Sequence record: OR896825.1 | Source: Escherichia phage Delraymugoa | Length of the DNA stretch: 64,000 nt | Reading direction: 5' to 3' (one strand) | Shown: one piece after another, positions 3,501 through 8,307 of the stretch | Position numbering within the stretch: the first letter of the stretch is position 1 | Layout of the letters: each line of letters starts with the position of its first letter | Position numbers and translations under genes: made by a program | The notes under the pieces: generated by a model | The model's input: the letters and a program-made list of their open reading frames with translations, nothing else | Database searches by the model: none | What the model was told of the DNA's origin: nothing

Positions 3501-3668
3501 TTATTTGTTAATTTCCGGTGCGTTGCTCGGATAGTAACCTTCTTTAACACCCAGATATTTTGCGACCATTCCGGTGATCTTCTGTGCTACTACGATATCG
3601 AATTTCAGGTAATCTTCACCGTGGTTTGCTACAATGTATGCTTCGCATTCTGCTTTAGTCTGGAACAT
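3501..3668 (-). CDS. small hypothetical protein (55 aa), paralog of 219..386 (start trimmed)
   Basis: MFQTKAECEAYIVANHGEDYLKFDIVVAQKITGMVAKYLGVKEGYYPSNAPEINK; ATG at 3666-3668 after conserved leader. Confidence 0.6.
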   Translation of the reverse strand: MFQTKAECEAYIVANHGEDYLKFDIVVAQKITGMVAKYLGVKEGYYPSNAPEINK

Positions 3669-3702
3669 TTTTGATTCTCCTATATCTCGTTGGTATGTGT
3701 GC

Positions 3703-3731
3703 ATTATAGGGGATCGGTGATCCCCTGTCAA
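3703..3731 (-). promoter_or_regulatory. early promoter TTGACA-N17-TATAAT with GGGGATCACCGATCCCC hairpin spacer (PeSL)
   Basis: revcomp 3726-3731 TTGACA; revcomp 3703-3708 TATAAT. Confidence 0.65.
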
Positions 3732-3738
3732 CAACTTT

Positions 3739-4047
3739 TTATTCTTCATCTTCATCTTTATCTTGATATGCGTACTTCATAAATTTGTCTGCTACTTTGT
3801 CCGCGTTTTCAGGTTCTACGTCTGACGCTAGGACAACAGCTAGTTCGGTTTTGTCGTTTCCATCATACCAATGATTATGAGTGTCGTTTTCTTCGATATA
3901 AAACGAATCATTTGGAGTTGTGCGACAATATACGTCTAAATTCCCATCGATATAAAAGATCCAATCCGAATACAAAATGATTGTTTTAGCAAGATTTTTA
4001 TTGCCTTCAACGAAAGGTTCGGCTACAAACAAATTAGTATGTTCCAT
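3739..4047 (-). CDS. hypothetical protein, HxHW-AVDV family (start trimmed to MEHTN)
   Basis: THNHW and ASDV motifs; RBS GAGGAAA before ATG 4045-4047. Confidence 0.5.
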   Translation of the reverse strand: MEHTNLFVAEPFVEGNKNLAKTIILYSDWIFYIDGNLDVYCRTTPNDSFYIEENDTHNHWYDGNDKTELAVVLASDVEPENADKVADKFMKYAYQDKDEDEE

Positions 4048-4312: not shown

Positions 4313-4633
4313 TCACACAAAATGGCGTGTCAATGCTTCTTTTGCGGTTCCGCTAAGACTTTCGATCTCGCCTGGCATAACATCAACCGCCAGAACTTCT
4401 ACAACATCCTCGGACCCTAACCAGTGAGTATGGCCTTTGTAGAACTTGATAACCAGACTACCTTCCTCATCCCATTTAACGCTATCGCTAGCCCACCACA
4501 CATCACCGTCGATAAAGTTGATGTAAAGCACACTACGCCACATTGAATTAATTACTTTCAATACTGCGCCTTTCATCTCTTCCACGGTGTGGTCTTCCAT
4601 TTTGAAGACCTCGCCTACCTTAACTTTTGCCAT
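4313..4633 (-). CDS. hypothetical protein, HxHW-AVDV family
   Basis: GHTHW and LAVDV motifs. Confidence 0.5.
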   Translation of the reverse strand: MAKVKVGEVFKMEDHTVEEMKGAVLKVINSMWRSVLYINFIDGDVWWASDSVKWDEEGSLVIKFYKGHTHWLGSEDVVEVLAVDVMPGEIESLSGTAKEALTRHFV

Positions 4634-4650
4634 TTAGTCACCTCTCTTTA

Positions 4651-4830
4651 TTACATAACAATCACGCCAGCCGTTGAAAGTTGATGTTTCAACTGAGCAT
4701 TTTCTGCTACCGTCAAATCAATGATTTCTTGTGAAGCTGCAATCATATAGCCATTGGTGATATTGTTTTGCATCAGTTCAATGGTTTCTTCGTTGTAGCG
4801 GATTTTAGCGATGATTTCGTTGAAGTTCAT
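4651..4830 (-). CDS. small hypothetical protein (59 aa, start trimmed to MNFNEII)
   Basis: ATG 4828-4830 after ctaggagaatcaatt leader; track N-terminus reads through promoter. Confidence 0.5.
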   Translation of the reverse strand: MNFNEIIAKIRYNEETIELMQNNITNGYMIAASQEIIDLTVAENAQLKHQLSTAGVIVM

Positions 4831-4864
4831 AATTGATTCTCCTAGTTCGTTTCGGTATGTGTGT

Positions 4865-4893
4865 AGTATAGGGGATCGGTGATCCCCTGTCAA
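4865..4893 (-). promoter_or_regulatory. early promoter TTGACA-N17-TATACT with hairpin spacer (PeSL)
   Basis: revcomp 4888-4893 TTGACA; spacer GGGGATCACCGATCCCC. Confidence 0.6.
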
Positions 4894-4901
4894 CAACTTT
4901 T

Positions 4902-5258: not shown

Positions 5259-5287
5259 AGTATAGGGGATCACCGATCCCCTGTCAA
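5259..5287 (-). promoter_or_regulatory. early promoter TTGACA-N17-TATACT with hairpin spacer (PeSL), near-identical to 4865..4893
   Basis: revcomp 5282-5287 TTGACA; revcomp 5259-5264 TATACT. Confidence 0.6.
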
Positions 5288-5300
5288 CAACTTTTTTGAA

Positions 5301-5645
5301 TTATTTTTTCATGAGCTTAATGGCTTCTTCCATAGCCAGCACATTTCGATAGTTAGGGTATCTTGTTAGATCGTCATACATTCGCTTAAGGGTGGAAACT
5401 TCCTCAAACTCTGGGTTTTCAAGATACAATTGAACGAATTGTTTCTCTACCATCTCTGCTTTTAGCTTGTCTGCTTGTTCCTGTTCATATGATTTAGTTG
5501 GACCCAACACCAACAAAATGATAAAGGTGATCAACGGGCTAATGATCAACGATAGGAGAACATAACCGATAACGCTACGGTTTAAACGGCTTGCGTACAT
5601 GCCTACCAGGAAAACAAAAAGGATATAGATAAACAGAAAGAACAT
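5301..5645 (-). CDS. small membrane protein (two predicted TM helices)
   Basis: N-terminal hydrophobic stretches FLFIYILFVFLVGMY and VIGYVLLSLIISPLITFIILLVLG. Confidence 0.5.
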   Translation of the reverse strand: MFFLFIYILFVFLVGMYASRLNRSVIGYVLLSLIISPLITFIILLVLGPTKSYEQEQADKLKAEMVEKQFVQLYLENPEFEEVSTLKRMYDDLTRYPNYRNVLAMEEAIKLMKK

Positions 5646-5652
5646 ATAATGG

Positions 5653-6126
5653 TTACTCCTTATTTTCGCGCTCGTACTTTTCGAAATAAAATTCTACTGG
5701 CTGGTCGTGGATTGACAGCAAGCCAAAGCGTTTAGCCGCTCGCAACCCCATATTGCGCTGAATGTACTTCTGGAAGTTCTCGCGTATACACTTACGCCAG
5801 TATTCTAAGCCCATACAGCTTTTATAAAGATTGCATTGCACACACGCCGGATTCATGTTATCAAGTATATCATGTTCCGGTTTATGCATTCCTACAACCT
5901 TATACTTCCACGATCCATCATCATTACGGGCAATTCGTCCATTTTCATCATAGACAACCTTTGAGCGTCGTAATACTGGTTTGATATGGTCTGCGTGCCA
6001 GCGATCCCCTAGTTCCTCGCCACAATAGGCACAACGTCCACCGTATTTCATTTTCAGGATCTGGCGTTGCTCTTTCTTTGACAATTTTTTAGGTTTAGGG
6101 GCTTTCGCCCCTTCATTATCACACAT
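5653..6126 (-). CDS. HNH endonuclease (free-standing, homing-endonuclease-like)
   Basis: CAYCGEEL...HADHIKPV...NMNPACVQCN = CxxC / HxDH / N...CxxCN HNH motif. Confidence 0.7.
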   Translation of the reverse strand: MCDNEGAKAPKPKKLSKKEQRQILKMKYGGRCAYCGEELGDRWHADHIKPVLRRSKVVYDENGRIARNDDGSWKYKVVGMHKPEHDILDNMNPACVQCNLYKSCMGLEYWRKCIRENFQKYIQRNMGLRAAKRFGLLSIHDQPVEFYFEKYERENKE

Positions 6127-7621
6127 CGAATACCTCTTTTACTGTATTTGCAGTGGTCTTGTCGTAGCGAATACGTTTGATGATTGGGAGAAATAAAGAG
6201 AACTCCGGTTCATCTTCTTTACGTGATTTGCTGCGGATATACCCGTTGCATGTCATCTCAATAACTTTTCCAATCAGGTTATGACGGTCAGCCCATAACA
6301 TTTCTCGGTCGAGTTCATTTCGACGATCGAACGGAATTACACGTTCAGTACCATCATCACCTTTTTCGGTTGTAGTGTCGGTTAATCCCGATCCGGTGTT
6401 AGTCATCATTCGTCCGCACGCACTACGGACAGTAAAACCGCCTACCTTATTGGGGTCTTTACTATGCGGATATACATCAACAATTTCCGCGTCGAAGTCA
6501 ATCACTTCTTTAAATTTAACCTGATCTTTACTACGGCGATCTTCAAATACACCATGTAAATTTTTAAGGATAATACCTTCTAAGCCCATGTTGACATAAC
6601 GATGATATACTTCGCGAGCTTCATCGATATTGTTAACTACAGTGTTTTCGATGATCTGAACACGAGGATCGTTAAGTTCTTCAACAATCTGTTTTAGTTC
6701 TTCGAATCGATCTTTATATTGCTTCGTTGCTTTCTCGTTTCCGTAATACACATCACGGTCGATAACATCCCAGACAGTGTAAACAATACATTGGGCTTCT
6801 TCTTTTGGAATAGTTCCTTTAAGTGATTTGTTGAGGATACCATTTCCGGTCTGACGATCTGCAACAACGGATTCTTTCACTGCTTCCGCTACTGGCGTTA
6901 ATGGCATTTCCTCTTCTTCAAATATCCATGACAGAGTACCATCATAAACGCTTTCAACGAAGTTCTGCGCTGGTGTTTGCGAAAGGGTAGGCATATATAC
7001 CAATTCGCCATCTAGAACAATTCCACGGCCTCGTAGACGCTCTAAAACCGCAAACAAATCATCAAGCCCTTGATAGGTATTACCTGAGCGGGTATAGATT
7101 GCTAATGTTTCCCCGTCAATATCAGCCATACCACGAGCGCCATCGCTTTTAAGTTGTGCATACGCCGGATACTTGATATTAGCAATAGTCTTATCAGAAC
7201 ATGACGATGCAAGGTGGCACGGCTGCTGGGGGATCAGTTTCTTCCATACCTTGTTTGCAGTGGTAGCGGAACAGCCGCATTCCAGATCACGATTCAGGAC
7301 CATCATTGCAACTTTAGCATCATCCTCTGACAAGCAAGTCAGAGTATCGGTAACTAGTTGTAATGCTGCATTACCAGTTACTTGACGGGTGGCAAGTTTA
7401 TTTTTAAAGACCTGTAATGCACCGGATAAAGACAATACAGACGAATAGCGAGATGGTTTATCGTATTTCTTTACGCCAAACGTAACCTGTTTGCAATATG
7501 CCAGATAAAAGCATTCTTTCAGCGTTTCATTGCTTGCTGATTCTTTCAGAATCTTTTCTTTCAGCGATGTTTTGTCTGTTGCTGCAAGCTGATTAATGAT
7601 ATTAAGAATTGACATTTTCAC
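6119..7621 (-). CDS. 30: ATP-dependent DNA ligase (T4 gene 30 homolog)
   Basis: KxDG adenylation motif (AQLKSDGARG), 500 aa, position upstream of gene 31/cd as in T4. Confidence 0.9.
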   Translation of the reverse strand: MKMSILNIINQLAATDKTSLKEKILKESASNETLKECFYLAYCKQVTFGVKKYDKPSRYSSVLSLSGALQVFKNKLATRQVTGNAALQLVTDTLTCLSEDDAKVAMMVLNRDLECGCSATTANKVWKKLIPQQPCHLASSCSDKTIANIKYPAYAQLKSDGARGMADIDGETLAIYTRSGNTYQGLDDLFAVLERLRGRGIVLDGELVYMPTLSQTPAQNFVESVYDGTLSWIFEEEEMPLTPVAEAVKESVVADRQTGNGILNKSLKGTIPKEEAQCIVYTVWDVIDRDVYYGNEKATKQYKDRFEELKQIVEELNDPRVQIIENTVVNNIDEAREVYHRYVNMGLEGIILKNLHGVFEDRRSKDQVKFKEVIDFDAEIVDVYPHSKDPNKVGGFTVRSACGRMMTNTGSGLTDTTTEKGDDGTERVIPFDRRNELDREMLWADRHNLIGKVIEMTCNGYIRSKSRKEDEPEFSLFLPIIKRIRYDKTTANTVKEVFDV

Positions 7622-8081
7622 CTCGTTTTGTTAAACGTTCACGAATATCATTGAGGATACTACAAAATTCCGATTCAGTCAATATAGTCTTTAACGGATC
7701 AGTTCCACCTATACTATGACGTAATTTCTTATTTCCGGTAGCGAGTAATGCTTTACAAAATTCTGGGTTATTCCGTGCCATCGTAACAAATGCCAGATGC
7801 ACCAGTCTGTAATAATGCTCACTCATTCGATGAATCGGGCGACCCTGAAAATATAACAGGTGATTCTCAATCTTTTCAGTTCTTCCGGTTCTTTTTGCTT
7901 TGCCACCGTGCATCAAAAAGATTTCTCTTTGTCTCTGAGGGTTCTTAAATCTTAGCCCCTGTAAAAATCCTTCTGTGCTGTTAATATCGCAACCAAATAG
8001 ACGGAATGGTCTTTTATTGAAATTACTCAATTCACCCGATGGATAAGGTCCACCCGCATAGATATCAATTTCAGAAGTCAT
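7602..8081 (-). CDS. NADAR/YbiA-like (DUF1768) protein
   Basis: GELSNFNKRPFRLFGCDINSTEGFLQGLRF aligns with E. coli YbiA DFSNFAAWPIKVDGKTWPTSEHYFQAQKF; ALLATG as in YbiA. Confidence 0.6.
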   Translation of the reverse strand: MTSEIDIYAGGPYPSGELSNFNKRPFRLFGCDINSTEGFLQGLRFKNPQRQREIFLMHGGKAKRTGRTEKIENHLLYFQGRPIHRMSEHYYRLVHLAFVTMARNNPEFCKALLATGNKKLRHSIGGTDPLKTILTESEFCSILNDIRERLTKRGENVNS

Positions 8082-8235
8082 TGAAACTAATCTCGCTAAT
8101 CAGAGAGAACGGATCATAATCGTCATTAGGAATATCGATAGTAATCGAATGAGGGTTTACCCATACACCAAACTGGTCTTCTTCGGTGAATACTTCGGTA
8201 TGGATTTCGTGGATGTTTACATTCATAGTTTTCAT
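8071..8235 (-). CDS. small hypothetical protein (54 aa), not in ORF track
   Basis: hand translation MKTMNVNIHEIHTEVFTEEDQFGVWVNPHSITIDIPNDDYDPFSLISEISFNDF; RBS AAGGAAA; stop overlaps start of next gene. Confidence 0.45.
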   Translation of the reverse strand: MKTMNVNIHEIHTEVFTEEDQFGVWVNPHSITIDIPNDDYDPFSLISEISFNDF

Positions 8236-8280: not shown

Positions 8281-8307
8281 AAAATATAGGCGGGATTATT
8301 TCCCGCC
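8281..8307 (-). terminator. rho-independent terminator downstream of gene 31
   Basis: hairpin GGCGGGA/TCCCGCC 8289-8307, U-run on minus transcript. Confidence 0.55.

Follow-up and report, generated by a model that had tools for sequence, protein, structure and literature searches.

Free-standing HNH genes in T4-type phages are usually assumed to be selfish homing elements, and folds of the homing endonuclease gene (HEG) type are also known that have become fixed as selected phage genes, as in T4 endonuclease II (DenA), T4 endonuclease VII and HK97 gp74. The gene described here adjoins the DNA ligase gene of Escherichia phage Delraymugoa (OR896825.1), of which a stretch of 64,000 nucleotides, referred to below as the window, was analysed. 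It shares the HNH catalytic core with T4 MobA-E and with the AP2-HNH homing gene ORF040 of RB49 and is, like them, a promoter-less gene lying between phage genes in the same orientation, but it differs from them in having no NUMOD, AP2 or HNH_3 module, in encoding only 157 residues and in occurring in all relatives rather than patchily. Neither homology nor experiment ties it to the specific functions of DenA, endonuclease VII or gp74.

The window phage belongs to the genus Krischvirus (RB49-like); a 4-kb query around the HNH gene matched 58 phage records at 95-99% identity, every one of them from an RB49-like Krischvirus coliphage, with phage FL37 as the closest match. The identity of the gene is already known, since it has been both annotated and discussed in the literature. 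The window ORF displays 100% amino acid identity to RB49p212, which lies at the same locus and is named 'HNH endonuclease' in RefSeq. RB49ORF212c was put under 'putative mobile DNA elements' by Nolan et al. (2006; PMC1524935), and Petrov et al. (2010; PMC2993671) counted one 'other HNH' putative homing endonuclease gene each in RB49, phi1 and JSE. A literature search returned no functional work on RB49p212-type HNH proteins, on Krischvirus HNH genes or on the HNH genes found between trbC and traN in plasmids.

The HNH protein and its junction with gene 30

The original prediction described a 157-aa ORF with CxxC, HxDH and N...CxxCN motifs, and these motifs were found as described, with support from both PF01844 and phrog_2118 (Table 1). 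With 27 bits (E 5e-6) the window protein exceeds the cut-off of the Pfam HNH profile PF01844 (21.4), and along its entire length it matches the PHROG family phrog_2118, 'HNH endonuclease' (2.7e-54). The PF01844 match is confined to the N-terminal half of the motif (residues 32-53), because a beta-hairpin insertion of ~25 residues divides the HNH motif. In the family alignment, D46, H47, N90, N99 and the four cysteines C32, C35, C95 and C98 are invariant across 61 homologs. Structure prediction gave a confident model with the beta-beta-alpha-metal fold, to which the HNH domains of Cas9 are the nearest solved structures; fold matches in BFVD carried only generic HNH or endonuclease VII labels, and a sequence search of the PDB revealed no significant relative (best E 0.18). 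By profile, residues and fold alike the ligase-adjacent protein is a member of the HNH superfamily, and ORF 5653..6126 is a genuine conserved gene, not a chance ORF.

When the protein was compared with the structures of the Cas9 HNH domain, the Gme HNH nickase and McrA-type CCCC-zinc HNH proteins, only about half of it could be aligned; the hairpin insert (~residues 52-81) and a C-terminal three-helix region (107-155) are peculiar to its family relative to these structures. The protein has all the sequence features of an active one-metal HNH nuclease and is predicted to be one; it would nick or cut DNA by one-metal-ion catalysis, with His47 as the putative general base.

Table 1. Positions of the features discussed, numbered in the window
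Feature	Position	Strand	Remark
PeSL (promoter-early stem-loop) TTGACA-GGGGATC..GATCCCC-TATACT, first of three perfect copies	5259..5287	-	
Further perfect PeSL copies	4865-4893, 3703-3731	-	Consensus TTGACA-GGGGATCnnnGATCCCC-TATAmT
Variable cassette gene, RB49 ORF211 homolog, 114-aa membrane protein, phrog_25625	5301..5645	-	Full-length in ~20/57 records
HNH nuclease gene, 157 aa, ortholog of RB49p212 / phi1p212	5653..6126	-	ATG-initiated ORF
N90 (structural Asn) ... C95-V-Q-C98-N99 (second zinc knuckle, metal-ligand Asn)	5830..5859	-	N90, C95, C98, N99 invariant
H44-A-D46-H47, catalytic Asp-His (general base) of beta-beta-alpha-Me site	5986..5997	-	
First zinc knuckle C32-A-Y-C35 of HNH	6022..6033	-	Invariant, 61-sequence family alignment
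In-frame 24-nt insertion GATAATGAAGGGGCGAAAGCCCCT, codons D3-P10, encodes DNEGAKAP	6097-6120	-	Directly after codon 2
Perfect hairpin GGGGC-GAAA-GCCCC in HNH 5' end	6098..6111	-	From sequence; reminiscent of PeSL stem-loops
8-nt overlap ATGTGTGA, ligase stop / HNH start	6119..6126	-	Read from sequence
HNH Shine-Dalgarno AAGAGG, inside ligase coding sequence	6133..6138	-	6 nt upstream of ATG
Gene 30, ATP-dependent DNA ligase gp30	6119..7621 (annotated ATG start 7615)	-	Pfam DNA_ligase_A_M 2.8e-22; phrog_114 1.4e-141
Gene 30.3, overlaps ligase start	7602..8081	-	Pfam Phage_30_3 1.8e-38
ORF215 homolog, first chain gene after gp31 terminator-like hairpin (8289-8307)	8071..8235	-	

The predicted location of the gene beside the DNA ligase gene, at the border of the hyperplastic region, was borne out, with a conserved block (31 / ORF215 / 30.3 / 30) upstream and small ORFs separated by PeSL repeats downstream. 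Within the block, the 54-codon ORF overlaps the start of gene 30.3 by 11 nt, gene 30.3 overlaps the start of the ligase gene by 20 nt, and the ATG of the HNH gene (6124-6126) stands ahead of the ligase TGA (6119-6121). ORF215, 30.3, 30 and the HNH gene thus form a chain of overlapping genes in which the HNH gene is the fourth member. The ligase/HNH junction is annotated alike in all relatives examined, and in Makalu_002 a ribosome-binding site is annotated at the place equivalent to the AAGAGG of the window. A scan for promoters and terminators found nothing convincing within the HNH gene or directly upstream of it. The arrangement is consistent with a gene that would be co-transcribed, and possibly translationally coupled, with the ligase gene early in infection. 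Further up the chain, gp30.3 displays a weak match to the NADAR domain (E 0.022), which hints at an ADP-ribose-related hydrolase upstream of the ligase.

Distribution of the gene and selection on it

The original prediction took the gene for a mobile homing element. An active free-standing homing endonuclease would cut the ligase region of HNH-less relatives and be copied into them by double-strand-break repair, and on this explanation it has swept the genus. Such an explanation agrees with the putative HEG listing of the gene (PMC1524935, PMC2993671), with its location where a conserved gene gives way to a variable region, with its promoter-less, cassette-like form and overlap with the gene upstream, and with the patchy occurrence of its family among temperate phages and plasmids. 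It fits poorly with the make-up of the protein, which has no NUMOD, IENR1, AP2 or HNH_3 module; Pfam gives only PF01844 and a sub-threshold Endonuclease_7 match, although the C-terminal helices could bind DNA.

The distribution of the gene bears on this explanation directly. HNH DNA was detected in 57 records, corresponding to ~51 distinct phages after removal of RefSeq/GenBank duplicates, and tblastn recovered the full 157 residues in a single frame at 96.8-100% amino acid identity in every one of them. The gene abuts the ligase gene in 57/57 Krischvirus records, and no disrupted copy is found among them. The ligase gene itself was present in 58 records, the 58th being a piece of RB49 in GenBank, 1.5 kb long, that stops short of the 3' end of the ligase gene. 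Because the isolates are nearly all E. coli/Shigella phages and at least 96% identical here, the count of 57/57 samples a narrow clade.

A deeper comparison was provided by an uncultured relative represented by two short contigs (L006 and L007; SRR8048111 and SRR8048117), in which the C-terminus of the ligase is 71% identical and the HNH protein 70% identical to those of the window, in the same order. The two genes of this relative share a TAATG stop/start overlap, and downstream of the HNH gene there are a hairpin terminator and a sigma-70 promoter. It is the sole deeper relative found, on 1-kb contigs. The ligase and HNH genes have been kept paired in it, which indicates that they were inherited together while both proteins diverged by ~30%.

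No empty site came to light in these records or in the relative with the 71% identical ligase, a result that speaks against homing. A search of IMG/VR for such a site returned two close loci, both with the HNH gene, and no HNH-less ligase allele was found among isolates, in IMG/VR or in the metagenome scan. More distant T4-like phages, with ligases 41-44% identical, had no HNH homolog within 3 kb. In the phage collection the gene was missing from every other T4-type genus, and neither there nor among the IMG/VR and metagenome matches did another T4-like genus carry it next to the ligase gene. The original prediction had proposed a comparison of the ligase-proximal region with relatives lacking the gene and had named its presence at this locus with identical flanks in all relatives, together with a lack of cleavage activity, as evidence against its proposal; the gene lies intact at the ligase junction in 57 of the 57 records, which is largely the distribution so described.

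The only close contig of the metagenome scan (MAVA01000210.1, 1029 nt) carries a ligase end 98% identical to that of the window, followed by the HNH gene. Three 1-nt deletions are present in this copy of the HNH gene, which at its 3' end runs into sequence from approximately window 4589-4684 in inverted orientation. The damage is probably an assembly or sequencing artefact rather than the mark of a decaying copy or pseudogene.

As a control for the behaviour of a mobile gene in the same genus, ORF040 of RB49 (L053, 12381-12935, between gene 47 and a-gt.4) was followed through the same records. It was present in 5 of the 57 (two records of RB49, JK32, MIZ4 and MIZ5) and cleanly missing from the other 52, with flanks 98% identical in carriers and 91-96% identical in non-carriers. 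In phage phiS the ORF040 site is occupied by another endonuclease gene. ORF040 is the picture of a mobile endonuclease gene in Krischvirus, and the ligase-adjacent HNH gene is unlike it; that a genuine HEG of the genus behaves so differently is a further point against homing.

To compare selection on the two neighbours, the HNH and ligase genes were extracted from nine genomes and analysed by Nei-Gojobori statistics. Pooled pN/pS was 0.025 for the HNH gene and 0.035 for the ligase gene, and pooled pS was 0.12 and 0.115, respectively. By its pN/pS the HNH gene is on a par with an essential gene. The synonymous divergence of the HNH gene therefore equals that of the ligase gene, which indicates that its residence is old. 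In the HNH gene, several genome pairs are separated by 12-18 synonymous changes and no non-synonymous ones; for G2494 and the window the counts are 13 and 0. A recently swept gene is expected to show less synonymous divergence than its neighbour, and a long-fixed selfish gene is expected to decay; neither a recent-sweep nor a decay signature is seen in the ligase-adjacent HNH gene. Old residence without decay is difficult to reconcile with homing, as a fixed selfish HEG would be expected to degenerate.

As a statement about current mobility, the label of mobile homing endonuclease could not be upheld in view of the presence of the gene in 57/57 records, its retention in the relative with the 71% identical ligase, its ligase-like purifying selection and the ORF040 control, and we consider an actively homing gene unlikely. 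We judge it probable, with some reserve, that this is a resident HNH nuclease gene, fixed in Krischvirus as a whole, and that it is not actively homing. Two observations run counter to a resident gene: elsewhere the family occurs patchily, as promoter-less cassettes overlapping their neighbours, which is how selfish endonuclease genes behave; and the metagenomic copy with its three deletions, if real, would be decaying. The GC3 of the HNH gene is 0.46 against a window mean of 0.38 (1.4 SD above) and is like that of the neighbouring genes of the hyperplastic region. This value, the absence of the gene from other T4-type genera and the identity of at most 51% to homologs elsewhere fit a single horizontal capture by the Krischvirus ancestor. 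Such a capture may have taken place before the genus radiated, from the stand-alone HNH pool of temperate phages and conjugative plasmids.

Sequence diversity at the junction and in the downstream region

Across 2.1 kb of gene 30.3, the ligase gene and the HNH gene, eleven genomes form a fine mosaic with a uniform 11-17 variable sites per 150 nt. This uniform density indicates frequent homologous recombination throughout, with no focus at the HNH gene, and counts against homing. In favour of homing, the genealogies of the HNH and ligase genes are discordant in some genome pairs; between RB49 and G2248, for example, dS is 0 in the HNH gene but 0.11 in the ligase gene.

A second feature that could be read as a trace of homing is a 141-nt tract of low diversity over the ligase/HNH junction (window 6043-6185), which holds 0 variable sites in the eleven genomes, where other stretches have ~13 per 150 nt; none of the 57 records has more than 2 mismatches in it. 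Next in length among the invariant gaps is 7592-7650, over the 30.3/ligase junction. RNA folding of the tract gave z = -0.94, not significant beyond one short hairpin. The simplest reading of the tract is overlapping coding and translation-initiation constraint.

The 24-nt insertion of the Krischvirus HNH gene and the perfect hairpin that it holds are situated in this tract. The insertion is missing from the 70%-identical uncultured relative and from all other family members, and it also contains a -10-like GATAAT with TGT ahead of it.

Downstream, the variable region begins exactly at the HNH stop codon and consists of small ORFs separated by the three perfect PeSL repeats. At least four arrangements follow the HNH gene among the records: the 345-nt membrane-protein gene, a shortened 261-nt ORF, ORF210 directly or ORF209 directly. 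The membrane-protein gene, the homolog of ORF211, is shortened in G2494 and absent from the records other than these and the full-length carriers; in RB49, ORF211 has been described as an insertion specific to that phage relative to phi1 (PMC2839356). The breakpoint falls inside the last few HNH codons, and the protein therefore has alternative C-termini, ...ERENKE or ...EREHQEK.

Each PeSL is built of a -35 box (TTGACA), a GGGG...CCCC stem-loop and a -10 box, and the number of perfect copies expected by chance is 0. Read-through of PeSL sequence yields a repeated peptide, LTGDHRSPI(L/M)HTY, at the mechanical starts of the ORFs at 3501..3755 and 4651..4896. Experiments by Arbiol et al. (2010) demonstrated that the ORFs of this region are excised and shuffled through PeSL-PeSL recombination in RB49 and phi1 (PMC2839356). 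As the variability is bracketed by PeSL repeats, experimentally shown to act as shufflers, the HNH gene is not needed to explain it. The claim that the gene marks a recombination hotspot accordingly stands in one part only: the downstream flank is hypervariable, but a part of the HNH gene in marking it is not supported, given the documented PeSL shuffling and the uniform mosaic upstream.

Homologs outside Krischvirus and candidate roles

The best homologs outside Krischvirus reach at most 51% identity; they are short HNH genes standing alone in temperate phages or on plasmids. When 1.84 billion representatives were searched with a profile, 157 clusters came out at E <= 1e-30 and 1,533 at E <= 1e-10; of the 150 representatives listed, nearly all are ~113-250 aa long and match over nearly the whole profile. 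In temperate siphoviruses and lambdoid/P22-like phages the homologs occupy early regions, with ea/nin-type, replication, methyltransferase, RecT and integrase-proximal genes around them; some are beside RecT, NinB or RusA-type genes, and one phage homolog lies near the terminase. In PLSDB, homologs (~40% identity) occur on 2,684 plasmids, of which 2,435 are conjugative. Two IncF plasmids were examined (L055, 3986-4405; L057, 3986-4408), and in both the homolog lies between trbC and traN in the tra operon and overlaps the start of traN by 4 nt. In most of the contexts examined, the homolog overlaps or nearly abuts its neighbour, resembling a promoter-less cassette.

The window protein shares full-length homology (36-51% identity) with members of the phrog_2118 family such as HK225 gp55, c341 gp24 and PSLT094.1N, the last encoded between trbC and traN of pSLT, and it has in common with them the invariant residues, including a C-terminal FYFEK, and the usual overlap with a neighbouring gene. 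Unlike them, the Krischvirus copy is extended at its N-terminus by a Lys-rich stretch of 18 residues and has a longer beta-hairpin insert; it is also linked to DNA ligase and fixed in a virulent T4-type lineage. In HK225 and c341, two unrelated lambdoid/P22-like phages, the homolog is followed by the same small gene, annotated 'released from the phage upon host infection / acetyltransferase inhibitor', despite different upstream genes. The homolog and this small gene appear to travel as a two-gene module in these phages.

If the Krischvirus gene is resident, it may have been kept because it benefits the phage. Among the roles that could confer such a benefit, we rank first, as a tentative proposal, an attack on non-self DNA, either of the host or of a co-infecting phage. 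A nuclease of this kind would explain both the selection on the gene in a virulent phage and the spread of its family among mobile elements. The DNA of this T4-type phage is unmodified. Searches with NCBIfam and PADLOC gave only weak sub-threshold matches to the HNH core (retron HNH, PtuB and Cas9) and no evidence for a defence role.

The role ranked second, which we regard as rather doubtful, is that of a structure-specific repair or recombination nuclease that acts with the ligase in nick-and-seal or branch processing, analogous to T4 endonuclease VII or to repair nickases. Its appeal lies in the tight linkage to the ligase gene, retained over ~30% protein divergence, and in the conservation of K18, R21, R111, R129 and FYFEK, which lie outside the active site, across very different hosts, as would be expected of an enzyme directed by structure and not by sequence; the homologs lying beside recombination genes of the RecT, NinB and RusA type point the same way. 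The homologs elsewhere, however, show no linkage to ligase. RB49 moreover has an endonuclease VII of its own, encoded by gene 49, to which the similarity of the HNH protein is marginal (E 0.008 over 33 residues), and the Pfam Endonuclease_7 profile (PF02945) scores 13.3 bits, below its cut-off of 23.6. A replacement of endonuclease VII by the HNH protein was considered separately and excluded, because gene 49 is present in RB49 as a separate gene.

Ranked third, and in our view improbable, is a selfish homing gene whose empty sites have been exhausted. A terminase-associated HNH protein of the HK97 gp74 type, serving genome end formation in packaging, is least credible of all and very improbable. 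T4-type terminases have their own nuclease and package by the headful mechanism. The neighbours of the HNH gene are the ligase gene and HPR ORFs, far from the terminase and portal genes, and the protein shows no similarity to HK97 gp74 (BLASTP E 0.34 over 7 residues). Although one homolog does lie near a terminase gene, most are found in early regions or on plasmids and are not terminase-linked.

A wider suggestion, which we put forward as speculative and on balance unlikely, is that the small HNH family may have a conserved function that benefits the element carrying it, either by destroying, upon entry, competitor DNA or a nucleic acid of the host's defence, or by processing nicks together with ligase; the copy in Krischvirus would then have been domesticated and be coupled in its function to DNA ligase. 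The value added by the present analysis is modest and consists in correcting the default homing label to that of a genus-wide, selected, ligase-linked nuclease. Should a phage-level function be found, the gene would become a further case of the domestication of a homing-type nuclease, and it would offer a way into an HNH family that is widespread among plasmids and temperate phages.
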